A DNA stretch of 64,000 nucleotides, taken from positions 19,282,001-19,346,000 of the forward strand of contig NC_086384.1 in assembly GCF_036588685.1 (NCBI RefSeq). Direction: 5' to 3'. The position numbers were made by a program, and so were the translations under genes. This document shows, one piece after another, positions 3,392 through 59,187 of the stretch. Source of the stretch: Mytilus trossulus (Eukaryota). The notes under the pieces were generated by a model. It worked only from the letters and a program-made list of their open reading frames with translations, searched no databases and had not been told where the DNA came from. Numbering within the stretch: the first letter of the stretch is position 1; every line of letters begins with the position of its first letter.

Positions 3392-3833
3392 ATAATTCTG
3401 GTACCTTTGATAACTAATTATGTAGACGAAACGCGCGTCTGACGAATTAAATTATAAGCCTGGCACCTTCGATAAATATTCACACTATTGGTTTGATTCC
3501 ACTGCTGGTGGACGTTTCGTCCCCGATGGTATCACCAACCAAGTAGTCAGCATTTCGAAGTTGGCGTGAATATCAATGATACGTTTTTTTTAAATAAATT
3601 TATTGTTTGCAAAAGTATGAATTATTTGAAATATTTACGATTATCCTATCCTAGGCATAGATAACCTTAGTCGTTTTGGCATAACTGTTTTGGATTTTTG
3701 GTCCTCACTGCTTTTCAGCTTTGTACTTGTTTGGCTTTCTAACTATTTTGATCTGAGCGTCACTAACGAGTCGTGTGTAGAAGAAACACGCGGCTGGAAT
3801 ATTAAACTATCAGCCTGGTACCTTTGATAAATA
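3392..3833 (+). mobile_element. Retrozyme monomer, degenerate (UAUGU-loop subfamily)
   Basis: Half hammerhead tgtagacgaaacgcgcgtctgacg at 3421 and a mutated one at ~3757-3810, 355 bp apart. Ends in cctggtacctttgataaatat. Confidence 0.8.
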
Positions 3834-5483
3834 TAAGAACAGGTTCAAACAAATGCAGTGGGTTTAAATTTTTTAATATGTACCTATTAATGCTTCTTTC
3901 TAGCGCACCATTTATTTAACCTTAATATTCAGCAAGGCGTTTTTCTAAAAAGCTCTTATTTATGTACAAATGCATCAAAGACAAATACACAGTCAATCTG
4001 CATTGTAAAATGAGTATAACGCTTTATGTATCAAAAACGTTTCTTAATTTTCTTTCATTGTTTTCTTATGCTCAAACCAAATCATTCGAAAGCCAAAGAT
4101 AAGAGCTTTCCAACCGAAAAGGGAATACAAATAAAACTTGCTTGACAATCATGTCGACCACTCGTTGTTAATGAGGACTGACCGACACTAAGCTGGTGTG
4201 TCAACAAGTGCTTGTAAATGAAAATAGCAGTTAATAAATTTCGTGCTATCGACGCGATCTTCATAATAACGAACTTAATCGTGAATTCTAAAACCAAAAC
4301 GCTTGAACGGCTATCATATCTCCAACCAAAATATGATCAAAAAGGAGTTAATAAACGTACAGAAAGTAAGAACTTTACTTTCTTTATAATTTTTAAACAG
4401 AGAATTAAAACAACAATTAGTAATAAAATTATTTTATCACCAAACCAATGGTACTGAGCTGATGATACCCTCGGGAAAACTGACCACAGGGTATCGATAT
4501 GTGCTAGTGAATTGAAAAAAATAAAAACACTTTATTAAAAACATGCGTCCACAGCACATCTCTGGTTTCCATTAATTGAGAAAACTAAAACCTAAAAGTA
4601 AAAAGGCCAAGGATTTGTAGAACCGTTACGCATGAATAGCTATAAAATCAAAAGGAACATAAATTTGTCAAATTAATCTAAGGCCAATTTCTGAGTTGAT
4701 TAAACCTTAGAATCGAAAGTCCGACAGTAGGGTTATTATTAGAAAAGTGTGGTTTTTGATAAACCACCCGCAAAGACTGAAAAAAAATATTGTTTTGATC
4801 ACGATGATTTTACTTTTCAAAGTATGATATAAGATAAAAGTGATATAATGTGAATTTACTTGTTGCCATTTATTAACATCAATATAGCCTTCACTTTCAT
4901 ATTTTAATTTATAATACCCATTTAACACCTTGCAGGGGAAATATCCTTAAAACATAGACCGTTCAGCAACTCAAGGTCATATCAATTTAGACATTTACTT
5001 AAGTCGACCCATTGACGTCAGCATATGCTATTTGTTATCGTTTTTATTTTTTGGTGCTAAATGAAATGACAAACATATTTTTCCTTTATGTAACTAAATT
5101 AAAAGAAACTAAGTTATTTTTAAGAACACACATATCAAAAAGGAAATATTTGTTTTAGACAATAGGCCTGAATATAAGAGTTCTTAGATAAAAAAAAATA
5201 CTAAGAGTAGCACTTAACTGTACATAATTATCGTCACAGTATCCAAATTGTACCGAGCACTTAAACTGCAACCATTAAGCAAAAAAGCGGCCAATGATAC
5301 GGTTTTTCATAGACTAAACAATTTGTATCATTATAATTTGAATTAAGAAACGATGATAGTACGTCGGAAGGGGATTTTACCCCTGTTAAAAGAGAGTCAA
5401 ATTTCATGCACGTAAACGACACCCTTGTAAAAATAGGAGATATTTTCAAAATATTATAGATTCTTAACTTTCATATTCTTTAA

Positions 5484-6054
5484 AGTCATAAGAAACCTCA
5501 AATCAAAAAAAAAATGCATATGTTTTTTATAACTCAATGGATAGTTTTCATTATAAAACTTATGTACACATACTTTTTTCTGACGAAAATTCTTTAATTT
5601 ATTCATATTTAGAAGAAGTTTACTTTATTTGAATTGCTTCCTTCCAGCAAGCAATTCCCCCGACATATTTTCCGTATGCAAGGTGACCTCAGTGTGACCC
5701 ATCTCGTAAAAATCCGGTGGCCACAATACGCATAGATGTTCTTAAAATAAACTATTATCTGAATTTACATGTTGAACACGTGCTCAATTTCCATGCTTTT
5801 TGTTGATTTTATATCGATTGTTGACAAACAGGTGACAATCGTTAAACTTCGGCTTCAAAACACGAACTTTAATTACCTGCCATATTTCCACAACAACACT
5901 GACCGATTGAAAAAAAATTGACGATTATACGAAATTTACACGAAAAAAATGATAAATTCGAGCACAGAAGACTAAGTTTATGATGTTTGTAATATGCATT
6001 GGTTCAAGAATTGGAAGAACATTATTTTTCACCGGTCACTCGTTTCTTATGACT
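5484..6054. mobile_element. MITE with TTAA TSD (Kolobok-type non-autonomous DNA transposon)
   Basis: Perfect 13-bp TIRs AGTCATAAGAAAC / GTTTCTTATGACT flanked by TTAA (5480-5483, 6055-6058). Confidence 0.85.
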
Positions 6055-8289
6055 TTAAGAACTTAAATTGTTTTCATTATTTTTTTCTTATCTTATTGTT
6101 TGTATTGAATCATGAAAATTATTGATGTTTTAAAGTGTATTTCCTTTGGAACCCGTAATTTGAAAACAAATTTCTTCTTCTATACAGAACTAGCACAGTA
6201 TATACATACCGACAAATAGTATTCACTGAAAAATGTAGAATCTACTAAAACTGGATCATTGGTCAACTTAAAAATTTAAGTAATAGAAATACAAATATAT
6301 GACATGCATGCATTTCTTAATAAAATAATAGTAAGCATAGGGTTTTGCTGACTTGTTCTAAATATTAGTAAAACAAAAACTAGAATTTTCGGTGAATACA
6401 ATTTGGTTATTCCTCATTAAATAATTGTAGATCATTTAGAGGTGGATTAAAACCCATTTTGTTATGATTCAATGTGGATTCAAATCAAAGTATGTTAGCG
6501 AATAAGAATACCACTAAAAAATAAACACAGAAAGGAATCTTTAGTCCGAATAACGACTTAACTTAGGAGACAAACATGTCAAAAAGGGTGCATTTGGGTA
6601 TTCTCATCTCTCACAAAGTCATTAGAACACTCATTTGCATTAACACGAAGCATTAAATACCGATCAATAATGATAAACTGTCCCACTATGAAAGTCATGT
6701 AAGATTATATCATGCTTTTTCCGGCGCAAAAATCACTTGAAAATTGAGAATTGAGTCCTTTTGTACATAATAAAGAAAACTAAAAATTCTTGTTACATGT
6801 TGTATTAATGTTTTTTTTCTAGTTCATAAACATACGATTTTCTTAGGTTTGCTTTTTGTAAATTTTTATGTTGACGAAAGAACAACGCAATCATATACAT
6901 TATTCAGTAGCATATACAATACACTACAAGTTCTTGTTTTATTGCACTAATAAATTTATTTTTGCATTTTATTTTGATGTAGCCAATGAATAGAGGGCTA
7001 ATTTCATTTTTTTCTGTATATTATATTCCTATATAAATGTTGAAGAAAGAAATCAATGAATAAAAAATGTCTATCTTTGAAAAAAATGGAACCGAAAGAT
7101 AGCCATTTTATTTTAGAATTATTATCTTTACAGACTAATTTTATTTGATGCAACTCATTAAATCTAGCTAGATAACACATGTTAACAAACAAATACAACT
7201 AATGATTATCATTGAATAAATAAACAACGCTCATTCACAAATACTATAGATACAAAGAACATAACAAAATAAGCTAAAACAAAAACAAAAACAAAAACAA
7301 AAACAAAAAATAAAAACAACAAACAAATACAAAAAATCAAAAAGATAACAACAGAACCTTTGAAGTTTTTTTTTACTTGAATGACAATATTCCAGACGAA
7401 TTATAGTAAATAAAAAAATGTCATATTTTCAACAAAAGTTGTATCTTCCTTCTTTTTTTTCGGAACCTATTTTGTTTTCATTTAAAATCAAAATACGGAT
7501 TTTGTAGGTGAACACGTTTTTTTTCATATTCGCTATAAAAAATTATATCTAATAATATCACACTAAAAAAAATAAGAAGCAAAGTGTGTCGTAATATCCG
7601 GATTAATTATATAGTGTTGTTAATCTTTCTTCGTCGCATGAGTTTTCAACCCTTGGTACCGGGCGTATTTTTAATAGTCAATTTGACCGATGTTGTACAA
7701 CAAAGGGACGTTCAATCTTATAGAAAATAAATTATTTGAAAACGGCATAAAAGACCAACAGACAAACCATTGTTAAATAAATTACCATAAAACGAAAGAC
7801 AGAGCAACACGAACCCCACCACAAGCATATATTAGCAAACAGCATGTAAGAAGTGTACACCTTTTCGTAACATTCTTCAATTTCTCAGTTAAACAAGAGC
7901 TATACTTAATTTTCAATTCATGATAAACTGGATCCTTCAGATTATGTAGGTTCTATTTGTTGAAAAGGGGATGGGATCGTTGTTTTTGTTGTGTCGTTTG
8001 TTTCCTCTCGTATTTAAGTGTGAATTCACATTACTTTAAGAAGTGTCACGATAGTTTTCTATCTCAAATTCATGTATTTAGTTCTGATGTTATATTTGTT
8101 ATTCTCGTCAGATTTTGTCTAATGCTTATTTAGTTTCTGTGTGTGTTACATTTTAATGTTGCGTCGTTGTTCTCCTATTATATTTAATGCATTTCCCTAA
8201 GTTATAGTAACCCAGAGTTGTTTATTCTATCGATTTATGAGTTTCGAACAGTGGTATTCTACTGTTGCCTTTATTAGAACATTTGGAAC

Positions 8290-8640
8290 AAATCCGCTAT
8301 CATATGTGAATCGGATATTCCACAATGAAGGGATGCTTTCAACTTCACTGCTTCGAACACTTGGTTTTATTGCTTTCTTGTAAGCAGCAACCCTCTTTCC
8401 AGGAAATCAAGATAGGAATCTTGTACTATCGTATAAAATGGGAGATATATAATCAGGCCCTTCTGGTATGTTGCTACATAGAAATAGAAAGTTTCACATT
8501 GGGAAGCTGCATCAATCATCTCGTTTGTCTTTTTGCCAACCGACCCTCATCGTTAATATATAGATGTAAGTCAAGATATGAGGCAGACTTTACTGTATGT
8601 ATTGTATCCTTTGTTGAAAAACACGGCTTCCAAACTTAAA
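8290..8640 (-). mobile_element. Degenerate Penelope-like RT C-terminal fragment
   Basis: Reverse-complement similarity to 41460-41690 (cttgacttacatcta, gacaaacgagatgat, ttctatgtagcaacat). Confidence 0.7.
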
Positions 8641-9697
8641 ACAAATGTTAAAGCATCTTGAAAATTTCAGTTTGAGAGATTTTCTTGTTACAATCATAGT
8701 AATTCTTATTTCATTGGATGCATCTTGTATTTAAGTTATTTAAGTTATATTTTTGTGATTTTACTTTTTCTCATACGCAGTTGAAATTTGTATAATGCTA
8801 CTAAAGTGGAAGAAATAATGATTTCAGAATTAAAATCGTCTCTTTATATAAATATATAAATATATATATATAAATATATTCCGGTTATGAGATACTGTGT
8901 ATATCAAATTCGAGGTTAATATCTGAAAATGACGCGGAGGAAGTCGTGTCGGTTGTTTCTTAAATTTCTAGTTCTACGGAAAGTATGAATGTCAGAAACG
9001 TTATGATTGTTAATGGAAAGAACACCATCAATATATCTGAAAGTAAAATTGAATAACCGGGCTTCTTTAATCTTTTTAATTAGAAAAATTCTAAAAATGA
9101 TAAGAGTTCGACAAGGAGATGCACACAGTTTGTTTCAATAGAAATGCCGACAATTTCTTGAAAAGTCTACATCTAAATTAAACAAATATGTTTTCAATAA
9201 AAAAAAAAACCTGCAGCATGCTATATCTCGTTCCTCTGTAAAGCAAACTTATTTTTCAAGTTCATACTTTACTCTAGGTTTTGTAAAAGTTGTGTACTAA
9301 TGTGTAAAATATTTCGAATTATTTAAATTTAGTTGATGCAGATCAGGTATGCATTCCATCAGAGTTGTAAACCGTCATATGTGAAGATTTTCAAAATGTT
9401 GGTAATGAATCAGGATGCGAATTGTACTATGTTTTCTGATATATATTGCAATACAAATATATATAAAACAATATTCTTGTTTCAAGTAAAACAAATTACT
9501 ACCAGGAACCTGCTGTTAACCTATATGTCAAACATAAAAATAAATTCGTTTACCTAAATGTTTATAGGTCTAAGGATTTTTGTATTTTGATTGAATTAAG
9601 TGATAATGATACAAACAAATGTGCTATTTTTATTGAAAAAGAAACACAGGCATTAAATTTAATTCAAAATAAAAATTAATAGGTCTTTCAAATTTCT

Positions 9698-10108
9698 AAA
9701 TAAACTCATCATAGATACCAGGACTAAATTTTGTATATACGCCAGACCCGCGTTTCGTCTACAAAAGACTCAGCAGTGACGCTCGAATCTAAAAAAGTTA
9801 AAAAGGCCAAATAAATTACGAAGTTAAAGAGCATTGAGGTCTGACAATTTGAGGACCAAAATTCCTAAACGTTTTGCCAAATCCAGCTAAGGTAATGTAT
9901 GCCTCAGGTAGAAAAGCCGTAGTAATTCAAAAATGTAAAACTTTGTAAACAGTTAATTTATAAATATAACCATATCAATGATAATTCATGTCAGCATAAA
10001 AAGTGCTGACTACTGGGTTAGTGATACCCTCGGGGAAATAATCTCCACCAGCAGTGACATCGACCCAGTGGTTGAAGATAAACTCATCATAGATACCAGG
10101 ACTAAATT
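9698..10108 (-). mobile_element. Retrozyme monomer with terminal direct repeat
   Basis: aaactcatcatagataccaggactaaatt at both ends. The hammerhead at 9739-9782 has CUGCUGA (core mutation). Confidence 0.85.
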
Positions 10109-10625: not shown

Positions 10626-10996
10626 TTTTTAAAAGATATTAACTAACTTCTAAATTAAAAAAAGGAGGATAATAGCAAGGGAAAATTGAAGTTTTTAAGT
10701 TAAAAAAAAATACCTGTCTATGCCAAGACAAAATAAAGAAAAAAAAACAGCACGACGAGGAAGACTAAATTAGACTCAGCAACACGAAATAACATGATCC
10801 AAATATATACACTTCAGTAGACGATGAAACACCAGAAAAGGTATTTAACTTATTGCATTACGGGATCAAATTTCTTGTTAGCTACGAATACTTGAAATTG
10901 GCAAATAACGCTTTTTGTTCAAAGTCTTGACACCAATATGTAGACATGAACAAAAACGTTATCCGAAAATACATTTCACTACACGATGTTTAAAAT

Positions 10997-11280
10997 GTAG
11001 TCAGCACATTTTGTGCTGACATGAATTGTCATTGATATGGTTCTAATATTTTAAATTTACTGCTTACACAATTTGAATTATTTTAAATACTAAGGCATTT
11101 CTACCTCAGGCATAGATTACCTTAGCAGTATTTGGCAAAATTTTTAGGAATTTTGGTCCTCAATGCTCATCAACTTCGTACTTTACTTGGCCTTTTTAAC
11201 TTTTTGTAATCTTTTGAAGACGAAACGCGCGTCTGGCATATATACAAAATTTAGTACTGGTATCTATGATGAGTTAATTT
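10997..11280 (+). mobile_element. Retrozyme partial monomer
   Basis: Reverse-complement match to the 21758-22712 unit. The hammerhead 5' half is deleted; gacgaaacgcgcgtctggc is retained. Confidence 0.8.
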
Positions 11281-20091: not shown

Positions 20092-21795
20092 GATTCTAAT
20101 AGGAATATTTGAACTCTTTCACTTCGAAGCGGACCTATAGTAGACGCTCGGAATGTCACCATTTTGATTTCATGAGCCAAAAACGTTATAGGAAATCAGC
20201 AGTTTATCAATAAAAAAAGAACAGAAGCATTTAAACTTACTTTTAGAATGTTTCTATTTAATTTCCTAGCGAGCAACACCAACAAAAATGTCCATTTATG
20301 ATCTCTGGCGTTGTTCAAAATTCATCTGACGTTGCAATTTCAATTGTGACGTCAATCACGTGCAGCCCATGTTCTATTTGAATTAGAACACGGCTGTGTT
20401 TACAAAGCGTAATAAGGACGTCATATTAGAATTTGGTTTCAACTCCCGAAGGTAGAGTTGACCTTATCAAATTTGATTATTTTTCAAGGTCTCTTCTGAT
20501 AAAATGGTTCTTCCCGAGTTTAGGTTGGGTACAGCTTTGGCTTTCCAACATTTAGTTTAAGCATTATATATTTATTTATAAAATAAAGATGAATCAAGAG
20601 AAGCGCTTTCGACGCATGCTAATAATGAAGTGTTTTCTTTTTCGATTTTCTGGATAGAAACACTGTTTGTGGTCGGTTTTTTTGAAGGGTATCATCAACT
20701 CAGTAATAGTTGGTTCAGTTCTGTGATAGTTTTTTAACACGTTTTGATTTTCATACCCTGTTTATAAATGATATAAAAAAAGCAAGGCTCTTTCTTTTTT
20801 CTGGCAAAGTTTAATTTGTATTTTTGAGGTCACTTTTCATGTGGAACAGGTTTTGATTACCCTTCCGGAGCACCTGAGATCACCCCAATGTTTTGGTGGG
20901 GTTCGTGTGGTTTATTCTTTAGTTTTCTATGTGTGTCATGTGAACTAATATTTGTTTGTTTGCCTTTTTTGCATCTTAAGCCATGGACGGGTCAGTTTAT
21001 TTTCGATTTATGAGTTTGACTGTCCCTTTGGTATCTTTCGTCTCTTTTTTTATCGTAAAACTTTTTAAGTGTTTCGGTACTAACATTAGCTTCCAAACTA
21101 TTGTTTCTGTCTATTCATAACATCTCTTTGATTGCACGAAATTGTAAAATATTTATTTTCATTTACTAACATGTCATGGAAAATTTATATTTATTTGATT
21201 ATTTGGTAAAACAGTCTTATTTGTGTGCGCTATTTCTTACCTAATGGAAGATTTATATGTATACCAAAAATTTCATAACCTCATGGAATATTTGTATATT
21301 TGCCCTTTCGTACCTCATGGGATATTTGTATGTATAGTTACCATTTCGTACATCGTGGAAAATTTGTATATATGTATGTATACCATTTTGTACCTCATGG
21401 ACGATTTGTGTATACCATTTTGTACCACATGGAAAATTTGTATATATAGTTACCATTTCGTACCTCGTGAAAGATTTGTATGTATGTATGTTCATTATAC
21501 CATTTTGTACCTCATGGACGATTTGTGTATACCATTTTGTACCACATGGAAAATTTGTATGTATAGTTACCGTTTCGTACCTCGTGAAAGATTTGTATGT
21601 AAGTATGTATACCATTTTGTACCTCATTTGCGGTGTGTGTATTTAATTTTGTACCACATGGACAATTCGTATGTATAGTTACCGTTTCGTACCTTGTGGA
21701 AGATTTGTAAGTATGTTTGTATACCGTTTTGTACCACATGGAAATTTTGAATGTATATAAACTTATCCTAGATACCAGGACTAAATTTTGTATAT

Positions 21796-21839
21796 ACGCC
21801 AGACGCGCGTTTCGTCTACAAAAGACTCATCAGTGACGC
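21796..21839 (-). ncRNA. Type I hammerhead ribozyme, intact core
   Basis: The minus strand reads GCGUCA CUGAUGA GUCU-UUUGU-AGAC GAAA C-GCGC-G UC^ UGGCGU. Stem I, stem II, the conserved CUGAUGA/GAAA core and the GUC cleavage triplet are all present. Stem III is minimal, with palindromic ACGCGCGU. Confidence 0.92.
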
Positions 21840-22243
21840 TCGAATCCAAAAAAAGTAAAAAAAAAGGCCAAATTAAGTACGAAGTTGAAGAGCATTGAGG
21901 ACCAAAATTCCTAAACGTTTTGCCAAATCCAGCTTAGTTAATCTATGCCTGAGGTAGAAAAGCCTTAGTATTTCAAAAATTCTTAATTTTGTAAACAGTT
22001 AATTTATAAATATAACCATATCAATGATAATTAAAAAAGTGCTGACTACTGGGCTGGTGATACCCTCGGAGAAATTAATCTCCACCAGCAGTGACATCGA
22101 CCCAGTGGTTGTAAATAAACTCATCATAGATACCAGGACTAAATTTTGTACATACGTCAGGCGCGTTTCGTCTACAAAAGACTCATCAGTGACGCTCGAA
22201 TCCCAAAAAAGTTAAAATGGCCAAATATAGTACGAAGTTGAAG

Positions 22244-22332
22244 TTTAATTGCTACTTGTTTCTGGATCCTTATTGTGAATATGTGTTTATAATTTATACT
22301 TGTATTTATCATAATAAAATATTGTTTACACT
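22244..22332 (+). mobile_element. 89-bp insertion with 9-bp TSD, probably a 5'-truncated LINE 3' end
   Basis: AAGTTGAAG is duplicated at 22235-22243 and 22333-22341. The insert ends AATAAAatattgtttacact. Confidence 0.7.
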
Positions 22333-22611
22333 AAGTTGAAGAGCATTGAGGACCAAAATTCCTAAAAGTTTTGCCAAATCCAGCTAAGTTAATATATGCC
22401 TGAGGTAGAAAAGCCTAAGTATTTCAAAAATTCTAAATTTTGTAAACAGTTAATTTATAAATATAACCATATCAATGATAATTCATGTAGCAAAAAATGT
22501 TGACTACTGGGCTGGTGATACCCTCGGGGAAATTAATCTCCACCAGCAGTGACATCGACCAAGTGGTTGTAAATAAACTCATCATAGATACCAGGACTAA
22601 ATTTTGTATAT

Positions 22612-22656
22612 ACACCAGACAAGCGTTTCGTTTACAAAAGACTCATCAGTGACGCT
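22612..22656 (-). ncRNA. Hammerhead copy, core intact, stem II mismatch and stem III palindrome lost
   Basis: GCGUCA CUGAUGA GUCU-UUUGU-AAAC GAAA C-GCUU-G UC UGGUGU on the minus strand. Confidence 0.7.
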
Positions 22657-25600
22657 CGAATAAAAAAAAAAGTTAAAAAGGCAAAATTAAGTACGAGGTT
22701 GAAGAGCATTGGGTATAGTTACCGTTTCGTACCTCGTGGAAGATTTGTAAGAATGTATGTATACCATTTTGTACCTCATGAACGATGTGTGTATACAATT
22801 TTGTACCACATGGAAAATTTGTATGTATAGTTACCATTTCGTACTTCGTGAAAGATTTGTATGTATGTATGTATGTATACAATTTTGTACCTCATTGACG
22901 GTGTGTGTATTCAATTTTGTACCACATGGAAAATTTGTATGTATAGTTACCATTTCTTACCTCGTGGAAGATTAATAAGTACATGTATGTATGTATACCA
23001 TTTTGGACCTCATGGACGATTTGTATGTATATCAAATGTAAAACACATATTTTGTCGATGAGCTACCAAATGGTAGATTCATTTGCCCTAAAGGGTAAGA
23101 AACGGTAAATGTTGGGTTTGAAATGGTAAATGTTGGGTACGAAGTAATAATTTTGGGTTCGAAATGGAAGAGGTACGTAATGGTCAAAGTACGAAATGAC
23201 TAACTACCGATACATCAGCTTATGAACCGTAAGCCCCGCGGACCTCATTTAATCAGTAGCCAGTGGATCGTTGTTGACGTGATTGTAAACCATTTTTTAT
23301 TCTTCGTTTAAGATACCAAACGGAAACTATTGTTCTACCTACTTCATGCAAAATTGAATGGAATGAATGTGGCAATTCTTAGGACCATTGTTAGTTGCAT
23401 AGCTCTTAACCTGTATGGGTCTCACAAAACCTTGGCGTTCATAGTTTGGGTTTGAGCATTCATACAGAATGAAAAAAGTTTTGAAAACACTTCGGACGAA
23501 CAAAATTAAAATGCGTTATGTTCATTTGACAATTTTAGCAAACATTTATCTTTGATAAGTTTTAATATAAATAAAAAAATCATCAAATATACGTCTGCCT
23601 GAATATTGGTGTAAATTAAAATGTCCTGAAGAAAGAAGCATAAATTGCATCCCCTGGTGCCATTCGTTAGAAGAAGAATAAAAAACAACAACCAAATATA
23701 GCAGTAAACAAGTAAAAGCAGATGCATTGAAATTCATTGTTCATATTTCTTGTGTTGCAATAAAATAAAGATAACATCATATAAAAATAAAATAACTGCA
23801 TTCATCATGAAAAAATAACAATAGGTTATCGCCATAGCTCTCGAATGTTTAGAATAAAAAAATCAAACCCAACATATACTTTCGATTTAAGGATATGCTT
23901 TTCTTCTTGTTTAAAGCTCTCACATATATATTTTTTATTATCAATTATTATACAAAGCAACATAAGCAACACGACGGGTGAACAGAACGTTCATAGTATA
24001 TACCTACAGAAAACGAGTACTAAAGTATTCATGGAAACATCGAAAGTGACCATTTGTCAATTTTTTAAATCTTAGCAATGCAAATATGTTATATGCAGCA
24101 ATTTCTTTAAATAACGAAGAGTAAGCATGGGATATTGCAGATTTGTTCTAAATATTTTGAGAAGTAAAAAAAACACCATTTTGTTATGATTCAGTACGAA
24201 TCGAATCAAATTGATGGAATTTTATAGTGAATAAGGATACCACTGCAAAATAAACACAAAATGGAAACTTCAGTCCGAAAAATTGATAAAATTTGAGGGG
24301 GGGAGTCGATAGGACGCATTTTGGTACTCTCATTTTACACAAAGTCACACTTACAATTATTTTTATTAACATAAAGCATTAAATACCGATCAAAAAGGAA
24401 AACTGTACTGCTATGCAAGTCATTATATTATATCATGATTTCCTTCCGCTGAATATCACTTGATAATTGCTGTCTTTCTTTTATCTGAACCCGATACACA
24501 CTTTACTTTTGTAAAGATCATAAATTTCATAAAGTGAAGGATTTGATAAATTTAATAATTTTATGAGAATTGTGTCTCTTTTTTTGGCATAATAAAGAAG
24601 CAAGAAATCCTTGTTACATGTTTTTTTAGTGTTTTATTTCATGTTCATAAACATCCGATTTCCTTTTTTTTTTGTAGTTTATAGTTTGAAGAGAAAAGGC
24701 AAAGACGCAATCATATACATTATTAAGTAGTATGTATAATATGCAGACATATCCAAGTTCTTGTTTCACTGAACTAATAATTTTTTTTTTGTACTTGATT
24801 TTGATTTAGCCACATTGGGAAACAGTCATCGTTTGCTATACGTTACATCCCATATAAATACTGAAGAAAAAAATCAATGAACCTAAATGATATACCCTGA
24901 ACAAAACCCAATTGGAATCGAAAAAAGTCATTTTTCTTTAGAAATATTATCTTGACATATTACATGTATAAATATTAGTTAAATCTAGTTGACACATTTA
25001 AAATTCATATTTGAATTAATAAACAACGCACATTTCAATATATAATAGACAAAAAGAATATAAGAACAATAAACTCCAAAAACAAACTAAAACAAACAAA
25101 CAAAAAAATTAAATCAATCTACTCAAGTTATATTTTTTAGAATGACAATTATTGTAGACGTATTTTTCAATAATCGCAATTTAAAACTAATTTGTACATA
25201 TATGTTTTCATTCAATTTGAAGAATTGCTTTAGCCGTGTGACATGATTTTTTTATCAACTGCCTGTGGCTATTATCGCATGCTTTTCTGTAACGTTATCG
25301 CTGGACATTTCGACCTCAATCGCCAAATGACGAATAATCTAACTCAATGGTACTTCTTTTTAGTGTATAAATCTTAACAAAGATGGATAAGAAAAAATAT
25401 TAGGAATCATGAACCATGAACATGTATAATCAAAAATTGCAAAGAAAATATTACACATGCATTTTCAAAGTTTTGTCTGTATGTTTTCTGTTGAAGCTCT
25501 TTGGATGATATCATGACCTAGGGCTAATAAGGGGTCTGATATGGAAAATGCCATGGTATAATCTATATTTATCGCACGCATAAAATGGAGATGTAACGTG

Positions 25601-35529: not shown

Positions 35530-37145
35530 TAGTTCGTTCTTATGTTATACTGTTACGCCACTGTCGTAGGTAAGGGATTGGTTGGGATCCTGCTTGCATG
35601 TATAGCACCGCCACATTTGGTTTGTATGTACCTGTCCTTAGCCGAGCGCCTGTACTTCAGTAGGTGCAGTTTGTTGATGTGTAACATATTTATTTTTCGT
35701 TCATATTTTGATAATTAATTAGGCCGTTATGTTTCGAAATTGAACTGTTTTACATTTGTCATTTCGATACCTGTTAAGGCTGACTATCCGGTAAAGGCTT
35801 TGTGCATTGTTGAAGGGTGTACGGTGACCTATAGTTGTTAGTTTCTGTGTCATTTGGTCTCTTGTGGAGACTTAACTAAATCTGTAGTATCCTTTATCTT
35901 TAGTTCGATGGGATAGATTCGTTCAACATAGTCAACAAATTTTGCATTGTTTATTGGAAGAACATCATCTATATAGCGGAACGTAAAGTTGAAGGATTTC
36001 GCGAAATTCTTATCTTTCTTCCTCAGAAATTCATGTATGAAGTCGGCTTCATAAAAATAATAAATAACAAGTCGACAAAAAGACGGGCACAATTGGCTTT
36101 CATTAGAATTCCGACAGTCTGTTGAAAAACAGGTCCTCCTAACATAACAAATATGTTGTCAATTAAAAAATCAAGCATCTTGATAATGTCATCTTCAGAA
36201 AATGTCTTGTTTGAATCAGAGTGATCTATCCCTTCCCAATTCAAGATGCTTGTATTTACGTTCGCCATTTGTTTTAGTAAAACAAAGTAATACTAATGTA
36301 AAGGAGAAGCTGGACTTCCGCTTAAACATGTACATGATTTGCAGGGTTTCAAGATAATGACAACTTAAACATTTATAATACTTTCCATACAGATTTGTTC
36401 AACCCGAAATAGGTAACATGCAAATAATATATATCTTGATAATGTCCGTGTGAGTAAATGAGAATATAACGCAACGACAAAGAAAACCCATAGTTTTTAT
36501 AGTGTGCTGTTACGCCACTGTTTCAGATTTGGGAAGGGTTAAGTGCCAACACATTGTTTAAACCTGTCACATTGTCTAAAATGTGTCTGTAGTACAGTGT
36601 TTGTCGTTGATTTACGTCTGTCATATTTCATTTGTTTCTCGGAATTATTTTGTTATTAATAAGACCGTTAGTTTTCTAATTTGAAATAATGTGTTTACAT
36701 TATTCATTTCGTGGCCATTTATATATATAGCCTTTGCGGTATGGGTGTTTATCATTGTTGAATACCGTATGGTTTCCCATAATCGCTCATATTCACAGGC
36801 ACTTTATTTGAACTTTGGTGTTTAAAAGTGTCAACTGAATCTCATAGTTCTTTCTTATGTTGTACTATAAAACAATTTTCCCATGTTAAGGGGAGGGTTG
36901 AGATCCTGCTTTCAGCTTTAACTCCGCCACATTTTATATGTAAGTCCCTGTCCCAAGTCAGGAGCCTATAATTCAGTTGTTGTCAGTTGTTGATGCGTTA
37001 CATATTTGGTTTTCGTTCAATTTTTTAAAATATAAATTTTCTCGTTTGAATTGTTTTACATTTGTCACTTCATGTTCCTTTACAGCGGACTATGCGGTAT
37101 GGGCTTTTCTCATTTTTGAAATCCGTACATTTAAGGAATAACTGT
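35530..37145 (+). repeat. Three degenerate copies of a related SINE-like repeat (35530-35870, 36490-36820, 36845-37140) around the PLE fragment
   Basis: agggttgggatcctgc..ccgccacatt..cctgtcccaagtcaggagcct..ctgactatgcggtatgggcttt is repeated. Tails also occur at ~55080-55190 and 62820-62980. Confidence 0.65.
35875..36270 (-). pseudogene. Penelope-like element reverse transcriptase fragment (frameshifted)
   Basis: Overlapping ORFs give FLIDNIFV..GGPVFQQTVGILMKANCA / YEADFIHEFL..SFNFTFRYIDDVLPINN..IYPIELKIKDTTD, a PLE-type RT core with YIDD. Confidence 0.88.
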
Positions 37146-40515: not shown

Positions 40516-41085
40516 AATAAAGGCAACAGTAGTATACCGCTGTTCAAAACTCATAAATCCATGGACAAAAAAAAACAAACATCGTGGTAACAAACTGAAA
40601 CCGATGGAAACGCATTAAATATAAGAGGAGAACAACGACACAACATTTAAATGTAATACACACAGAAACGGAATAAGCATTAGAAAAATTATGAGAATAA
40701 AAAATATAACATCAAAACCAAATACATGAATTTGGGATAGATAAGTACCGTCACACGTCTTATCGCAATGTGAATTTACACTAAAAAATAAGAGAAAACA
40801 AACGACACAACGGAAACACAACGTTAAAATGTAACACACACAGAAACGAACTATTACATAACAATGGCCATATTCCTGACTTGGTACAAGACATTTTTAA
40901 AGAAACAAATGGTGGGTTAAACCTGGTTTTGTGGCATGCCAAACCTCCCTCTTTTATGGCCATGTGAAATATAACATTGCAATGACAAGACAACATTACA
41001 GGACTATAATATAAATAAATAGGAGAACACAATTGACAAAGAAACACACGAATAAAAGCTAACAAAAGGCAACAAGTTTAAAATT
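40516..41085 (-). repeat. Dispersed repeat ending in ...ctactgttgcctttattt (copies ~7975-8276 +, 42670-42865 +, 45940-46130 -)
   Basis: Reverse-complement identity with 7975-8276 (aaattcatgtattt..gatgttatattt; gatttatgagttt.gaacag.ggtat). Confidence 0.7.
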
Positions 41086-41145
41086 TTGATACGCCAGAAG
41101 TGCATTTTGTCCACACAAGACTTACTAGTGACGCCCAGATACAAT
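41085..41145 (-). mobile_element. Highly degenerate hammerhead/retrozyme fragment
   Basis: Minus strand gcgtcactagtaagtcttgtgtggacaaaatgcacttctggcgt aligns to the hammerhead consensus of this window. Confidence 0.6.
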
Positions 41146-41369
41146 TTTTTTTTATGTTTTTTGGAATAGACAGAAAAAATATTACAGTCATTTCTTATAA
41201 TTTACTTCTAAATTCGATTTAAAACCGTAGAAAACCATGAAAAAACGTTGATGACGTCACGGTCACATGACTAAATTATGTCTATGGGCTCATAACAAAA
41301 TAACGTCAGCCAATCAGAAGACCCGTTACATCCAAAATTAAATTGTAGAAACAAAAGAAGTAAGCACTA

Positions 41370-42022
41370 TCCTTTAACTTATTTTCTGCTATTTAGATGA
41401 TGTTCTCTCACTAAAAAAATCAAAATTTGGAGACTATTTTTAACGCATCTCTGAACTAGAGATAAAGGATACAACAGATACAGGCAAGTCTGTCTCATAT
41501 CTTGACTTGTATCTTTGAAATTAACAATTATGGTCAGCACTTTACGACAAAAGAGATGATTTTAGCTTCCCAACTGTTAACTTTCCATTTTTATGTAGCA
41601 ATCATCCAGAAGCGCCTGCATACGGAGTCTCTATCTCCCAATTGATACGACATTACAGGGCTTGTATTTCCTATAATGATTTCTTTGACAGTTTCTAGGA
41701 TAATATCGTAAATGTTCCTTGTGTCGTAACTACAATCCCATTCGCTTTTCACAAATGTGACCTATCGAATTTACCGGGTTTGTGATAATATGAGCAACAC
41801 AACAACTGCCACATGTGGAGCAGGATCTGCTTATCCTTCCAAAGCACCTGATATCACCCCAGGTTTTGGTGGGGTTCGTGTTGCTTTATCTTTAGTTTTC
41901 TATGTTATGTCTTGTGTACTATTATTTTTCTGTTTGTCTTTTTCTTTTCTAGCCAAGGCGTTGTCATTTTAGTTTCGATCCATGAGTTTACATGTCCCTC
42001 TGGTATATTTCGCCCATCTTTT
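41370..42022 (+). mobile_element. Penelope-like RT C-terminal fragment plus its 3' non-coding end
   Basis: Translates YLDDVLSL..ELEIKDTTDT..SYLDL..LYDKRDDFSFPTVNFPFLCSN..PAYGV.ISQLIR..RAC, followed by the ggagcaggatctgctta...ggtggggttcgtgttgc tail. Confidence 0.85.
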
Positions 42023-43704
42023 ATTTAATGCTTTAATACTAAATTTCCACCATTTCCAAACATAGGCTTTATCAATTAAAAATTAACATACAAAATAAAA
42101 TAACGATACATACTTAGACATTAATTCAAACAAACAACTTTAAATGTCAACAAAAGGGATCTATAAAACCAGAATGTCTAAAACGTTTTACAAAAATAAG
42201 TTAAAAAGTAAATACGCTGTCGATTCGGACATTATTCTCTTTTCAGGGTTTATCATTATGTATTACCCCGAAAAATATTGTTCTACCTCTGAGATTGTAT
42301 TGATAAAAAGTAAAATCACAAAAATATTGAATTCCTAGGAAAATTCAAAATGAAAAGTCCCTAGAATCAAATGGCAAAATCAAACGATAAAACACATCAA
42401 AAGAATGGACAACAACTGTCATATTCCGGACTTGGTACAGGCATTTTCAAATTGTGATATTTCCTCTAGTCAAGGTATTGTAACATCAATCAACTTTAGA
42501 AACATTATTTTAGGATAAATACTATAAGTAGTTAATAAACTTTATGAGGACAACGTTTCAGTATATTATCATTGTCTTTAACATAAAGCGCGAGGTTTGG
42601 CATCCAAAAAGCAGGTTCAACCCATCATCGTTACTTAAAATGTCATGTACCAAGTAATGACTTTGGCAGTTGCTATTTAATAGTTCGTTTCTATGTATGT
42701 TGTATTGTCGTTTGATTTATGTTGCACTGCATTGTTTTTGTTATTTCGTTGTTTTTTCTAATACAGTTGATGTGCTTCATTAGGTTTTAGTTTGTAACCT
42801 GGGGTTGTTATCTCTCATTCGTTTTTTATTGTTTCCTTTGACTATTGACTATTGATGCCTTTATTTTTTAGCATGTAAATTAAAGCGGTTATATATAAAG
42901 AGACCAAATACATCAAGTGAAAACATAATGAAAGTTACTAGCATATACTTATCAATGATAGCAACTGTATCAAAGTTTGTTTGTTGTTGTTTGCTTTACG
43001 CCAAAGTTTGTTTGTAGACAATCCTTCAAGATTAACAGGTTATTAATTAAAGGGCAGTGTTTTGATAACTAATTTGGCGTGAAAGTATTTGTTATTAGTG
43101 ACCTTGTAGTACAAATATATTGACATGATCCGTTCCTATGTAGTAATGTGTAGGAATGTTTGTATTAATGAATTCTAAGGAAGGATTGGTGTTGTTAATT
43201 TGTTGAATGAATAAGAATATGAAGTTCCTGTTCGATAAACCCATTTTAAAACAATGTCAAAATGTAGGAGAAGAGTTAGAGGGGGAGGTAAAGATACAAT
43301 ATTATTAAAATGAATGAATGTGTCCAACCATTGCTTATCGAATGGGTCGTTTCTATGTATGTAGATGTTTGTTTTTGTAGCACTTCGGTATTCCTGTTCC
43401 TTTATTTTTCCTTATTTTCCTCTATAATTGTATGTTTCCCTCTTATAATGGATATGTTTCCCTCAGTTTTTGGTTTGTAACCCGACTTTCTTTCCTCTTA
43501 ATCGATTTATGACATGCTATTGTTGTCTTCATTTACAAGACAGTGCTCATACAAAGGACATGTATTTTAATCCAATTGGTAAAGTACTTTTACCGATTTC
43601 AAAGAGATGTGACGGTAACACATAATTTTAATAACGTTTGAAAAATAAAAATTGAAAATGTTTTTCAAATGTATAATAAAATAACGGTTTGATACTAGTA
43701 ATAG

Positions 43705-44369: not shown

Positions 44370-45760
44370 TAAACACCTTCGGTGTTAACATGAATATCAA
44401 GTACTGTGAAAGTACTTTTATTCGTGGGGTACCAATTTTCGTGGATTTCGTGGATGACTTTATCCACGAATTTAAGTGTCCAACGAAATAAAACAACCGT
44501 TGTCCAAATCAAGACATGGAAAAATCACCATCGGTAGGTTTGACTACTGAACTAGAGAATATATTGAATAACGCCAAATCTGAGAATACTTTCATATATC
44601 AGTCACAGAACTACAACCGCATGCAGGATTACCCATTTAATCTTTAATAACCTAAACTGTACAACTTCTGATCATTTAATTCTCATTAAAAATATTTTTG
44701 ATCGATGAAAGTCAGATTTCCTGTATTGCTATGCAAGTAAGATAAAGTGTTTATTTCATTTCATCATCGTTCTCGTACATATTGGAAATAATAATTTCAG
44801 GCTGGGCTTGGTTTTGATAAGAATTATTTGACAATTCAAGATACATTTATAGCATTTGTTAATGTAACTGTTTTCTATAGGTGACATGTTTATGACCTAA
44901 TTAACACCGTGGATGTTTTTAAATCTTTTTATCACTTTATCATGGGTTAATAAGTGTTATTACTACAATTTATCCGGGTCAAGGTTTACTTTGCAATTTC
45001 CTTCAATCCAGACTATTTGTAACCCTATAATTTTTTTTTATTTTTTTATTTTAAATACTAAAATCCACGAATTTAAAAACCCACGAACATGTAAATATTG
45101 CTCAAACCACGAAAATTGATACCCACGAATTAAAGTACTTTCACAGTATATGGTCATTTTATAAATTTCATGTTCACCAAAAAAATAGTTTTGGAAAAAT
45201 ACTAAACATTTTCTAATCCCAGGCATAGATTACCTTAGCCGTATTTGGTACAATATTTTAACATTTTGGGTCCTCAATGCTCTTCAACTTTGTCCTTGTT
45301 TGGCTTGATAGCTTTTTGACCTGAGTGGTACTGGTGATTCTTATGTAGACGAAACGCGCGTTTTGGTGTAATAAATTATAATCTTGAGACCTTTGATAAC
45401 TATTTACTGCACTGGGTGGATGCCACTGCTGGTGGACGTTTCGTCCACAAGGGTATCACCAGCCCAGTAGTCAGCACTTTGGTGTTGACATGAATATCAA
45501 TTATATGGTCATTTTATAAATTTCCTGTTTACAAACGTATGGATTTATTGAAATACTGAGGATTTTCTTATCCCAGGAATAGATTACCTTGGCCGTATTT
45601 GACACAACGTTTTTGTTTATGCTCATCGACTGTTTATGCTCATCGACTTTGTACTTGTTTGGCTTTATAACTTTTTGACCTGAGCGTCAATAATGAGTCT
45701 CATGTAGACGAAACGCGCGTCTGACGTATTGAATTTTAAGCCAGGTACATTTGATAATTA
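44370..45760 (+). mobile_element. Retrozyme ~1.8-mer interrupted by a MITE
   Basis: Mutated hammerheads at ~45325-45368 and ~45684-45728, about 359 bp apart. The sequence gaatatcaa..tatggtcatttt is continuous across the 44404-45146 MITE. Confidence 0.8.
44404..45146. mobile_element. MITE with TA TSD and ~40-bp TIRs
   Basis: TA-CTGTGAAAGTACTTT.ATTCGTGGG.TA.CAATTTTCGTGG ... CCACGAAAATTGATACCCACGAATTAAAGTACTTTCACAG-TA. The empty site is visible in the retrozyme copy near 45500. Confidence 0.9.
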
Positions 45761-47424
45761 ATTACCATATATTGAGTGATAGGGACTAATTTCTGGAATA
45801 GGTAACTGTTTCAAGCTTGTTAATATACAATAAGGATCAATGAGTTTAAACTAAGATATGATAAGGTTGCCGAATACAACAGTAGTTTGAGAAACTTCTG
45901 AATCAGATGGTAGTATTTGTCTCTAAGATGTGTTTAAATACAGGCATCAGTAGTATACCGCTGTTCAAAAGTCATAAAACGATTAAACGAAAACAAATCC
46001 AGGAAACATAAGATGGAAACAACGAAACAAAAACACAAAAGCCAACATACATAGAAACAAACTATTTCTGACTTGTTATATGATATTTTAAGAAAACAAA
46101 ACTGGTGTTATGTCTAGCCAAACCACACGCATATATGTCAAATGCAAACTTATTGCTAAAACTCCAATAGTACGTTACAAGAATACAGTACAAATAAACG
46201 CCAGATCACTCAAGACAAAACGCATTAGTCTGAAAACACATCAGACATTTGTTCAATCTATTTTAATTCTTCGTGAAATATAGTCGATATGATAGGAATT
46301 TAAATTTAATATTCAAAGGTGTGTAAAAATGGTCGGTACTAGATAAATTGCATCTTCCTTTCTAGGGAAACGAACACTAAAGACTGAGTAACACAACCAA
46401 AAAGTAGAATTTACCGAGTCGCAAAAACATCAATTTTGTTCCATTTTGATTTTTGCTTGGAGTTATGTAATTGTATTATTTCACTTTTAAGTATATTCTA
46501 TGTCTATGAAATAACATTTGAAAGGGGAGATAAATAATAGCTCCTTCGATATTTGCTATCTTTATCAAAATTAAGTTGTCGCCCTTTCCCTATTTGATTT
46601 GTTAAGATCTGTGTAACTATAATGTTTAAATATTTTGTGAGATAAGTGGGGTGATTTCTAACGTGTAAATATTTTTAGGGTAATTTTATTTTTATATGAA
46701 ATCTAAGTTGACATCTGTGAATTATAGACTAAGACATTCGAATGACAAATGATCGTAACATATTTTGTGTACAACCTAATCTTCGCCCCCCCCCTTTTTT
46801 TTAGAATTTTGGGTGGAACATGGTGAAGAATTTTATTCAATTACGAAAAAGGCTTCAGCTTTTTCGAATATTAACGCCTCATGTTATGCATAACCGAAAA
46901 TCAAATGATTATTTCAAATGTATATGTAATAGGGAATAAAATCAACACACATACGGGATCTTCAAAGGGGAATATGGACGAATATTCACCGTTTTTGTTT
47001 TAAATTCCCAAATTAGAAAGGTGAAGGGATGACATGGTGCATTTAATCCATATCGTCTTTTTAATCTAGAATAAAAAAAGTATAAGTGTATATGTTTAAA
47101 CATAAATCATATAAGAGAAATATTAAAAGGGGTGGTGGCATTATTGCCAATGCGACAACCATCCAGAAAGGATAAGGACGCAAGCACATTTCAAAAACTC
47201 GTAACGATTCGATAGTACAGGTACAGGATTAGCTTATACCCATTAATAATAATATATATGGATAAAAGAGTGACGAAAGATAACAAAGGGACAGTCAAGA
47301 TAGTCTTCAAAAAATGAAATGTTTCACTATTAATTAGGTATTATCGTGATGACTGCAACCTGAGTAAAAGTATTAACGACATATTCAGATCTTAGCATTA
47401 GTTGCTTTAAAAGAGTTACTATAT

Positions 47425-47510
47425 TCACTGAGTTATGAATCTTTTATAGACGAAACGTGCGTCTGGCGCATATATAAATTTCATCCTGGTGTATCTATGA
47501 GGAGTTTATT
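47425..47510 (+). mobile_element. Retrozyme 3' fragment
   Basis: tagacgaaacgtgcgtctggcgc...cctggtgtatctatgaggagtttatt. Confidence 0.7.
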
Positions 47511-53763: not shown

Positions 53764-54005
53764 GATATGCCGGAATAGAACGACCAAGTGACGTAGAGCA
53801 AATCAATTCTTTAATACAACGTCTGCTGCAGGAGCACGTGCGAGTCTCGAGACCTAACGATCTTATGCACTATTCTAAACTGCTTCTTTGTCTGCCTTCC
53901 CTGTATGGAATCAATAGCAAAATGATTGAGAACTTGTTCTGTAAACATATCAATGGAAATATGGATATTGATGTTCTACTCAAAGAAATGTTGCAAAATT
54001 TGTGA
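53764..54005 (+). CDS. NR0B: NR0B-type nuclear receptor, last coding exon (LBD helices 9-12, AF-2)
   Basis: Acceptor tttcag ends at 53763. The phase-1 join G|GA is in frame with the previous exon (1201+242=1443 nt, 480 aa). Encodes YSKLLLCLPSL...IENLFC...DVLLKEML then TGA. The intron position after LFNx matches the single intron of vertebrate SHP/DAX1. Confidence 0.9.
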
Positions 54006-57643: not shown

Positions 57644-57915
57644 TTTTTATGCCCCATTTATGGGCATTATGTTTTCCGGTATGAGCGTCTTTTCGTTCGT
57701 CGTACCGTTCATCTGTCCGTCTGTCCCGCTTTAGGTTAAAGTTTTTGGTCGAGGTAGTTTTTGATGAAGTTGAAATCAACTTGAAACTTAGTACACATGT
57801 TTCTTATCATATGATCTTTCTAATTTTAAGAGCCAAATTAGAGATTTATTCCATTTTTACGGTACAATGAACATAGAAACTGATATTGCGTGTACTTTGG
57901 ACACATTCTTGTTTT
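57644..57915 (+). mobile_element. Helentron-associated (HINE/DINE-1-like) non-autonomous element
   Basis: Starts in a T-run with atgccc-cattt-atgggcat inverted repeat, has an internal (GTCC/GTTC)n microsatellite and ends ...acacattcttgtttt. Confidence 0.65.
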
Positions 57916-59066
57916 TAATAAAAAAAAAAAAAAAAAAAAAAAAGAATGTTAAAATAAAATTATTTTGCGGTATATCATAATAAACACAATTGCTAAAACC
58001 ACAAAAAGGCAAATGTCTGGCTCTTACATTTTTTTTTAATTTGTGTAGAATACGATTAATTAATACATTGGGACAAAATTACTGTACTACTCAAATGTAT
58101 CCGGTCAAGGTGGAAAATAGTGACCCTGGACAATATGGTAATTTCAAATAATGAATTTATTTGAAACAAATTATCTTTGAATTTTCCTTGTAGGCGGTGA
58201 AAATGATATTACTCATTTTATAAATCGCCCACAAATATTTGTCAAAACATTTTTGTCAACACATCCTATACGAAGCAGGACTTTTGTATATCAAGGACTC
58301 GCACTTTACGTAGAACAGGTAAACGAATCTAATGATAAATTGTACAAATATACATTGAAGTCAACGGTTGTTGAAAAGTATGACAAATTTAAAGATAATA
58401 TACACATCTATATAAAGGTAGGTTAAAAAATAAACATAAACACGAAATACTGGAATCTCCCTTTACATATAAATTTACCTGAATATTTACCTGAAAGGCA
58501 CAAATACACGCAGTGTATATGGCCTCATCTTAAAAACCTACCTTCCTTAAACAAATACAAAATTTAACCAAAAAAATGTCAAAGAAAATTTGTATGTGTC
58601 AAGTTATCTGATGATGTATAGAGTTTTATTTTTGATTGTTGTCTATGAGAGATTAAGCGGGAAACGAAATCTGTACGTGAAACATGGATCCTTTTGTTGC
58701 CATTGATATGCGATACCAGCATCCATTATAGAAGACGTGTGGTTTACATGAAATCGACAACAACCAAACAAAGAAAACTCATGTAAGAAGTAAAAAATCT
58801 GGTTTATTTTTAATTGCTTACCCTATTTCAGCTAAAATGGTATTAAGGAACCAGTCAAATTTAAGGCAACATTATATATAGTCCAAAAATTTGGTCGTAT
58901 AGATTGGTGTTGAACGTCAATGCATGAATAAAATGATAAACACTAGGCAGAAAAAAGCTTAATATACGGAATGTTTTCAAACTTACAAGATCCAAAGGTA
59001 AAAAGTGAAAATCAAGAGCCAACTATTCTTTGCTCTTACTTAACAATGTCGCAACAGGCTGAATAC

Positions 59067-59187
59067 ACTTCATTTGGCCTTTTTAACTTTTTTGAATTGG
59101 AGCGTCACTTATGAGTCTTTTGTAGACGAAACGCGCGTCTGGCGTATATACTTAATTTAGTTGTGGTATCTATGATGAGTTTATTTT
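59067..59187 (+). mobile_element. Retrozyme 3' fragment; hammerhead with a single G5>U core change
   Basis: GCGTCA CTTATGA GTCTTTTGTAGAC GAAACGCGCGTC TGGCGT at 59102-59145, then ggtatctatgatgagtttattt. Confidence 0.82.

Follow-up and report, generated by a model that had tools for sequence, protein, structure and literature searches.

Which enzyme spreads retrozymes, and where on the RNA does it begin to copy? The first of these questions has been open since 2020, and both are raised by a 64,000-nt stretch of the Mytilus trossulus genome (NCBI RefSeq assembly GCF_036588685.1, contig NC_086384.1, positions 19,282,001 to 19,346,000 of the forward strand), the whole of which is called the window below. 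The window is AT-rich (32% GC) and dense in repeats, and a type I hammerhead repeat occurs in it at nine loci, as two subfamilies, A and B. According to the original prediction, made from the letters of the window, independent insertions of this retrozyme stop at one point ~40 nt past the ribozyme cut, reverse transcription starts at an internal site on a circular or uncleaved RNA, and neighbouring Penelope-like elements (PLEs) provide the reverse transcriptase (RT). The analysis described here names, as the probable answer, a clade (the Naiad PLEs), a start nucleotide and a candidate signal of ~75 nt.

The retrozyme family

The unit, measured from cut to cut, is 358 nt long in subfamily A (35.8% GC) and 359 nt long in subfamily B (38.4% GC), and units are arranged head-to-tail, with up to 2.68 units per insertion among the window copies. 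The best Rfam hammerhead match in the window (Hammerhead_1 at 21796-21839, 32.5 bits, E 3.4e-4) lies below the gathering score of 34, and four further matches are weaker; hammerhead core motifs are present, several of them mutated. No open reading frame (ORF) of 150 aa or more lies inside any copy, and shorter frames of 65-104 aa overlap copies. In an RNA run (X22), 3948 of 8.7 million reads fell on the A monomer, on both strands, which places the sequence of the family in the RNA library without indicating strand or locus. Joints at which reads go back on the monomer were also found in DNA runs and are compatible with tandem units.

The retrozyme described from M. galloprovincialis has 350-390-bp units, a type I hammerhead, two ribozyme families and a GC content below 50%, and its RNA self-cleaves and forms abundant circles, circles and cut monomers being the main forms (Cervera & de la Pena 2020, PMC7229834). 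The window repeats fit a Mytilus-type metazoan non-long-terminal-repeat (non-LTR) retrozyme, matched to the published family by its described features rather than by clone sequence.

Insertions share a fixed 3′ end

All eight insertions on which the original prediction was based were recovered in the orientation given (Table 1), together with a ninth, decayed copy, for which local alignment was lost at +19 and the end was placed by eye. In ribozyme sense, the 3′ ends of all nine lie 39-48 nt past the hammerhead cut, at +44 to +48 in subfamily A and at about +39 to +42 in subfamily B; the predicted distance of ~40 nt thus describes B (about +41) and falls short for A (+47). The other ends vary as had been noted, with insertion lengths of 84-956 bp, or 0.24-2.68 monomers, and five of the nine are longer than one monomer. 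Under a uniform null, the chance that eight window ends fall inside a 12-nt stretch of a 357-nt circle is ~4e-10 (decayed copy excluded). As a control, internal hammerheads were followed past the fixed-end point, and all five continue through it; the fixed end is therefore not an edge of alignability. Apart from the copy split by a foreign insert (the insert at ~33667-33757), no piece clearly ending elsewhere was found in a whole-window profile search (nhmmer --max, E<=1, 24 matches). This count leaves aside six weak matches with E 1.4e-5 to 0.77, of which four belong to a different repeat (family W, see below), one is an antisense self-match and one is unassigned.

The same end was found beyond the window. 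Metagenome contigs were scanned with a hammerhead pattern that ends at the cut, so that ends at the cut would also have been caught. Of the eight loci returned, two were cut short by a contig edge, one repeated another locus and one matched by chance; the four usable loci have five measurable ends, and local alignment, which runs a few bases too far, puts all five at +42 to +52. At genome scale, contigs of three DNA runs with three organism labels (X1, possibly the window's own sample, X2 and X9) were placed on the subfamily-A monomer. Contigs breaking off at 22570 (+48) numbered 360 in X1, 303 in X2 and 233 in X9, joined by 205 reads in RNA run X22, and a further 313 X1 contigs break off at 22571 (+47). 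The flanks at 22570 have a median length of ~250 nt and an agreement of 0.38-0.39, as expected of unrelated sequence. Among the rows listed, the consensus at other loose ends is retrozyme again, and no pile stands at the ribozyme cut (22617/22618) among the 24 rows listed for contigs and reads on the A monomer, 1998 further rows lying outside this list. Read depth shows a roughly fourfold step at the fixed end in the three DNA runs; equal variation occurs elsewhere with sequence likeness, and the step was not used. The shared, fixed 3′ end with variable 5′ truncation is confirmed.

Two 5′ ends, at 3388 and 10108 (pieces 3388-3417 and 10078-10108), lie ~30 nt before the fixed end, which is the length of a PLE tail. 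This may reflect chance or a preferred stop; no matching pile of 5′ ends was present among the rows listed for the A monomer.

The DNA anatomy, with a fixed 3′ end, variable 5′ truncation and an end that is not at the cut, agrees with the predicted internal start. Every copy spans the cut, and the template must therefore have been continuous across it, as a circle or an uncleaved multimer would be. Target-primed copying ordinarily leaves this pattern of a fixed 3′ end and truncated 5′ ends. The pattern would also arise if the transcript ended at +42 to +47, by termination or by cleavage, and the RT started at its free 3′ end, as for a short interspersed nuclear element (SINE). The short U-rich stretch at the end suits such a processed RNA, but internal monomers read through the site, many longer T runs in the monomer are not ends, and the copies carry neither an A-tail nor a simple-repeat tail. 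Published retrozyme RNAs are mainly circles and cut monomers (PMC7229834), and RNA run X22, in which both strands are covered, shows no pile of read beginnings or ends, a weak argument since the library is fragmented. We consider a processed RNA end quite unlikely.

The fixed end coincides with a Naiad junction

A search with one relative of the RT fragments in the window returned 15 loci (L010-L024), which appear to be eukaryotic contigs within prokaryote assemblies; several of these prokaryote records, many of them from bivalve symbionts, include Naiad contigs that are apparently host contamination. One of them, L012, is a full-length Naiad on a host contig of a mussel-symbiont assembly. Its 1018-aa ORF has an N-terminal GIY-YIG domain (Pfam E 1.1e-5), CxC at 445 and DKA at 575, both upstream of the RT, and lacks a C-terminal nuclease, features that are diagnostic of Naiads (Craig et al. 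2021, PMC8557442, section 6), and by eye its N-terminus is nearly identical to that of the published Naiad_Bpla. No Rfam hammerhead and no hammerhead core motif were found in L012. The first 92 nt of the element repeat its own 3′ end without a difference, and its 5′ start comes next, which makes this a pseudo-LTR (pLTR) junction.

This junction matches the retrozyme. Positions 86-141 of L012 align with window positions 22576-22522 at 78% over 58 nt (E 3.7e-5), and under strict scoring none of 250 shuffles reached the score for any of three A copies. The terminal TTATTT of the Naiad falls on the terminal TTATTT of the retrozyme, so that the two are in the same register. What the two have in common is thus found 3′ of the fixed end, in sequence not carried by the terminal copies. 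A covariance model trained on five retrozyme domains alone was run against 117,743 bases (E-values rough) and gave nine matches, namely the five training copies, one truncated retrozyme, L018, L012 and one antisense self-match (E 0.77). It finds the Naiad start at L012 90-163 (E 1.9e-6) and a tandem repeat in L018 (E 5.7e-13), a contig of a deep-sea-mussel symbiont assembly. The L018 repeat (~2050-2340, minus strand) has units of ~250 nt and a CTGATGA..GAAA hammerhead-like core with no Rfam hammerhead match, and by eye it seems to end near the same junction. The link to the Naiad junction is clear for subfamily A and indirect for subfamily B, through the joint covariance model.

Published Naiads show the same arrangement, judged by eye from the supplement of PMC8557442. 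The Naiad_Mgal and Naiad_Bpla consensus sequences begin at the same junction; close to the starts of Naiad_Mcor, Naiad_Pmar and, more loosely, Naiad_Mphi stands the motif CTGCTGGTGGA, with CCCCGAG after it. A conserved domain 3′ of the end would not be needed if the RNA simply ended there, a further argument against the processed RNA discussed above.

The signal had been predicted on the other side of the end, in a cctggta..tgat hairpin within the terminal segment, and this proposal was not borne out. The segment folds no better than shuffles in five of five copies (z +0.45, +0.45, +0.92, -0.94, +1.29), and comparison with Naiad 3′ ends gives weak scores, equalled by 55, 279, 119 and 1326 of 2000 shuffles. 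The proposed comparison with PLE and LINE (long interspersed nuclear element) ends accordingly gave weak likeness to Naiad 3′ ends and no significant likeness to the apurinic/apyrimidinic endonuclease (APE) LINE described below; the match was instead found 3′ of the end. The octamer TGGTATCT, common to the 3′ ends of retrozyme A and of repeat family X, is striking to the eye but was weak as well (55 of 2000 shuffles) and is kept only as a hint.

Wider scans added little. The hammerhead pattern gave one chance bacterial match in genome contigs and none in viral contigs, and a Naiad RT search of viral contigs gave no match. Junction-motif scans returned 10 + 1 loci, of which one is the L012 contig; the other ten were judged chance from their record titles.

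Reverse transcriptases in the window

Roughly seven broken pieces of Naiad-type RT lie in the window (35-83% identity to L012). The short fragments were not recognised by Pfam and were assigned by homology search; one has 57 relatives, including a Mytilus edulis RT, and in the eight relatives examined the frame stops directly after the RT, without a C-terminal nuclease. All PLE-type RT pieces detected in the window, which was searched for them with Naiad-type queries only, match the Naiad group, and none includes an N-terminal part. Because they are short and stop-ridden, none of these pieces can be the active enzyme, although they identify the family. The predicted Penelope-like partner is supported and can be narrowed to Naiad, but not in the form of the neighbouring fragments, all of which are broken. 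The 3′ untranslated region (UTR) of the Naiad at 41349-42027 recurs in the window as family X, and family Z, which represents the 3′ end of another Naiad family, is by eye like the 3′ end of the published Naiad_Mgal.

Another mussel PLE clade, a hammerhead-bearing Neptune or Poseidon that shares the domain with Naiads, could provide the enzyme for the same internal start. Hammerhead-bearing PLEs have been noted in mussels (PMC7229834), Xenopus retrozymes are related to pLTRs of annotated PLEs in a study in which Naiad appears only in coral (Li, Clavereau & Pollet 2026, 10.64898/2026.07.22.740005), and the retrozyme hammerhead cannot derive from a Naiad like L012, which has none. On the other side stand the exact register of the match to the Naiad junction, the RT pieces of the window, even with Naiad-type queries, and the dominance of Naiads in bivalve PLE content (PMC8557442). 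We regard a different clade as unlikely.

The only near-intact RT in the window belongs to an APE-type LINE at 12883-17217 on the minus strand (Pfam RVT_1 E 1.2e-36, Exo_endo_phos), with ORF1, an endonuclease and RT split by single stops, and a TGTAT tail near 12710-12735. Such a LINE might mobilise the retrozyme as a SINE, and the short target duplications described below would suit LINE-type insertion; however, it shows no significant likeness to either retrozyme monomer (16 and 47 of 100 shuffles equal), its TGTAT tail is absent from the retrozyme, and the LINE 3′ end that a SINE would share was not found in the retrozyme, one LINE family having been compared. Mobilisation by a LINE therefore appears very unlikely.

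Target-site scars

Target duplications of 5, 6 and 8 bp were found in three of the nine window copies. The copy at 10994-11280 has a ~6-bp duplication, TTTAAA, that overlaps its end, with an empty paralogous site near 18325; the array at 21757-22711 has a 5-bp duplication, TATAC, and is inserted in a unit of a host tandem repeat for which the empty site is known; and at 47427-47510 the end of the copy overlaps an 8-bp direct repeat, TATTCACT. Each of the three is AT-rich and shares bases with the T-rich end of its copy, two are verified by the empty sites, and all three agree with the published retrozyme trait of duplications >4 bp when present. These scars fit target-primed copying aided by a few matching bases. 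The host repeat of the 2.68-unit array has units of ~110-116 bp and occupies 21232-21757 and 22713-23035.

Rolling-circle copying can produce tandem units in which one end is fixed and the other varies. At the DNA level, a rolling circle of the Helitron/Helentron type with a fixed nick site would give a common end, and Li et al. (2026) note a distribution that also resembles that of Helitron-like elements. The duplications of 5-8 bp speak against this route, as do the lack, by eye, of terminal boxes outside the repeat unit and the match to a retroelement junction, and we hold it to be highly improbable.

Proposed mechanism

All copies stop at the point at which the monomer holds a version of the end-to-start junction of Naiads. 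The retrozymes are therefore probably 5′-truncated insertions copied in trans by a Naiad RT/endonuclease, which would bind the predicted stem-loop immediately 3′ of the fixed end and start there on uncut RNA. Arrays would be transcribed, self-cleave to monomers and be ligated into circles, and the Naiad protein would bind the ~75-nt domain at +46 to +119. The GIY-YIG domain would then nick AT-rich DNA, whose 3′ end, through a few T/A matches, would prime cDNA on the U-rich stretch 5′ of the domain. The RT would run back over the cut site, sometimes for more than one round, and drop off at variable points.

The template would be uncut, since a cut linear monomer offers at most 47 nt, and between a circle and an uncut multimer we lean somewhat towards the circle. 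The two bodies of the array at 21757-22711 are 95.4% alike, compared with 91.1-92.6% to the 9698 copy; hammerhead regions and B arrays show no such excess of identity within arrays.

A number of observations weigh against this reading. With regard to the signal, the plain sequence of subfamily B is not significantly like the L012 junction (10 of 250 shuffles as good), and with loose gap costs the A match stands at 4 of 300 shuffles and the B optimum lies elsewhere. The pairing counts for the domain (90.9% of cells paired and 7 of 22 pairs with two-sided changes, against 38-56% when slid) speak for the stem-loop but come from an alignment that was fitted to the proposed structure and includes one truncated and one antisense row. 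Given a plain alignment, RNAalifold returned the inner hairpin alone, with another outer helix in place of the proposed one, and folding of single sequences gave z of only -1.4 to -3.2. With regard to the partner, the aligned full-length Naiad is from another mussel lineage and not from the window genome, and Naiad is the one PLE clade compared, so that other mussel clades could share the domain. With regard to the end, the start site is deduced from where the DNA copies stop, the genome-scale counts are for subfamily A only, RNA run X22 gave no usable strand or end signal, and a clear target duplication was not seen in six of the nine window copies. None of the nine has the 30-40-nt tail past the junction or the inverted partner of Naiads, features that are optional in PMC8557442.

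Family W is an old ~1-kb repeat (11548-12523 and 20474-20825 on the plus strand, 4363-5344 and 1081-1403 on the minus strand, with fragments at 2133-2542, 18751-19031 and 19318-19731) in which a weak look-alike of the junction domain of Naiads comes after a decayed hammerhead-like stretch; it is possibly a longer, older retrozyme family. The look-alike reaches nhmmer E 1.4e-5 at best, all four copies that cover it read through by 100-200 nt, and the covariance model does not find the family, observations that belong with those just listed. As the model does not recognise it, family W may be too decayed or may use another end.

A broader proposal, which we make tentatively and rate below the one above, is that mussel retrozymes are Naiad satellite RNAs, that is, hammerhead circles with a grafted ~75-nt Naiad module that alone sets the RT start, acting from the 3′ side. 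The telomerase-related RT would roll round the closed circle and write multimers into the nick, and the module would serve several families. Its presence in families with different ribozymes (A, B and the L018 type) would make it a portable start signal that turns any circular RNA into an integration template.

Table 1. Retrozyme copies, junction domains and Naiad-related elements in the window (positions are those of the window; + and numbers give the distance past the hammerhead cut in ribozyme sense).
Feature	Position	Strand	Remarks
Subfamily B piece, 30 nt (+13 to +42)	3388..3417	+	Stops at fixed end and abuts next copy; looks like partial tandem; nhmmer E 0.19, weak
Retrozyme B insertion, 1.17 monomers	3418..3833	+	Terminal cut after 3794, end ~+39/40
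Retrozyme A insertion, one monomer + 31 nt	9698..10108	-	Cut after 9745, end +47
Retrozyme A insertion, 5′-truncated, hammerhead core partly deleted	10994..11280	+	End +47
Retrozyme A insertion, 2.68 monomers, three hammerheads	21757..22711	-	End +44/45
Retrozyme B insertion, split by foreign repeat ~33667-33757	33270..33855	+	End about +39 to +41
Ninth, decayed retrozyme copy, absent from original prediction	41056..41144	-	End ~+41 to +43 by eye; nhmmer E 1e-10
Retrozyme B insertion, 1.72 monomers	45148..45762	+	Terminal cut after 45721, end +41/42
Retrozyme A insertion, 84 bp	47427..47510	+	End +47/48
Retrozyme A insertion, 121 bp	59067..59187	+	Cut after 59139, end +47/48
Naiad-like junction domain (~+46 to +119), predicted bulged stem-loop	22499..22572	-	Begins at fixed end
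Further junction-domain copies	22041-22114, 10005-10077	-	
Further junction-domain copies	45403-45475, 3479-3551	+	
5′-truncated Naiad	41349..42027	+	Broken RT C-terminus, then 3′ UTR (family X) and T-rich end
Naiad-type RT fragment, frameshifted	35868..36296	-	48% identity over 64 aa to full Naiad in L012
Decayed Naiad-type RT fragments	8280..9205, 28330-29467, 30865-31118	-	
3′ end of second Naiad family (family Z)	2658..2945	+	Like L012 3′ UTR
More family Z copies	near 737-995, 19754-19883, 26824-27120, 42298-42452		

Other features of the window

An abundant repeat with a common T-rich end, family Y (33667-33757, 35516-35873, 36831-37120, 55099-55188 and 62822-62983), has one copy inserted into a retrozyme, and its end geometry is loosely like that of Naiad ends. 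A further family-Y copy lies on contig L004 between a B-type (1358-1563, plus strand) and an A-type (2301-2394, minus strand) retrozyme that stand face-to-face, 740 bp apart. A young tandem array of ~50 copies of a 40-bp unit, 89-94% alike, occupies ~59250-61450 and begins ~60 bp after the last retrozyme copy. Palindromic stretches at 19929-20091, 27656-27764 and 37433-37589, the first 91% self-complementary over 164 bp, are possibly related in type to miniature inverted-repeat transposable elements. Lastly, exons on the plus strand at 50756-52039 and 53718-54005 encode a nuclear-receptor-like protein whose long N-terminal part is rich in Ser and Pro and in which Pfam recognises a ligand-binding domain (E 7e-10); Pfam found no zinc-finger domain in these exons, and we take the gene to resemble the NR0B type.

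Comparison with known systems

The retrozyme family, its circles, internal initiation by a PLE and the idea of a PLE partner were all known; the fixed end of the insertions and the link to the Naiad junction were not found in the literature searched, although supplements and subscription papers outside that search may report them. The proposed mechanism would explain how a retroelement without a ribozyme can carry a ribozyme circle. A first cis-signal for Naiads would also follow, a description of the Naiad mechanism not having been found in the literature searched, and if initiation works on a closed circle, a telomerase-related RT would be linked to rolling-circle cDNA synthesis.

The window family is the same as the M. 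galloprovincialis retrozyme in hammerhead type, unit size, the presence of two ribozyme families and low GC content. A circular template and a PLE or LINE partner had been proposed for Mytilus retrozymes (PMC7229834); unlike that work as described, the present analysis maps the insertion ends and names a candidate partner clade. A review of 2020 described retrozyme repeats as lacking a conserved motif that would point to an autonomous partner (PMC7761336), whereas a candidate for such a motif was found here. More recently, Li et al. (2026) reported that retrozymes share sequence with PLE pLTRs and proposed that PLE enzymes act on them. That study is vertebrate-centred and calls the mechanism of mobilisation open; in the part of its text available to us, no mollusc is named among the sampled groups, and end mapping, a start signal and a link to Naiads do not appear.

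The closest mechanistic parallel comes from Poseidon_Ac, in which reverse transcription begins internally at two sites, 85-92 nt beyond the hammerhead cut (Frangieh et al. 2024, PMC11167929). In ORF coordinates the cut is at +26 and the start at 111-118 nt; initiation requires the ORF up to nt 172 and ~55-60 nt of RNA downstream of the start, AT-rich targets are preferred, and hammerhead mutants have no effect (PMC11167929). The mussel retrozymes would be alike in the internal start 3′ of the cut, the need for RNA 3′ of the start, the uncut substrate, the AT-rich targets and the position of genomic ends on start sites. They differ in that Poseidon_Ac is autonomous and copies its own linear RNA, whereas the retrozyme is a non-coding unit of ~357 nt that ends 41-47 nt past the cut, with one main site and, as its candidate partner, a hammerhead-free Naiad.

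Naiads themselves code for protein, have no canonical hammerheads and leave 5′-truncated copies with a fixed 3′ end and partial tandems; the same paper suggests that retrozymes may exploit PLEs, and a link to Naiads is not stated in the passages available (PMC8557442). The 30-40-nt tail that Naiads may carry past their end was not seen in the window retrozyme copies. In the fixed 3′ end, the 5′ truncation and the partial tandems the retrozymes are the same as Naiads, and the motif that begins at their fixed end is the one that opens the consensus sequences of mussel Naiads.

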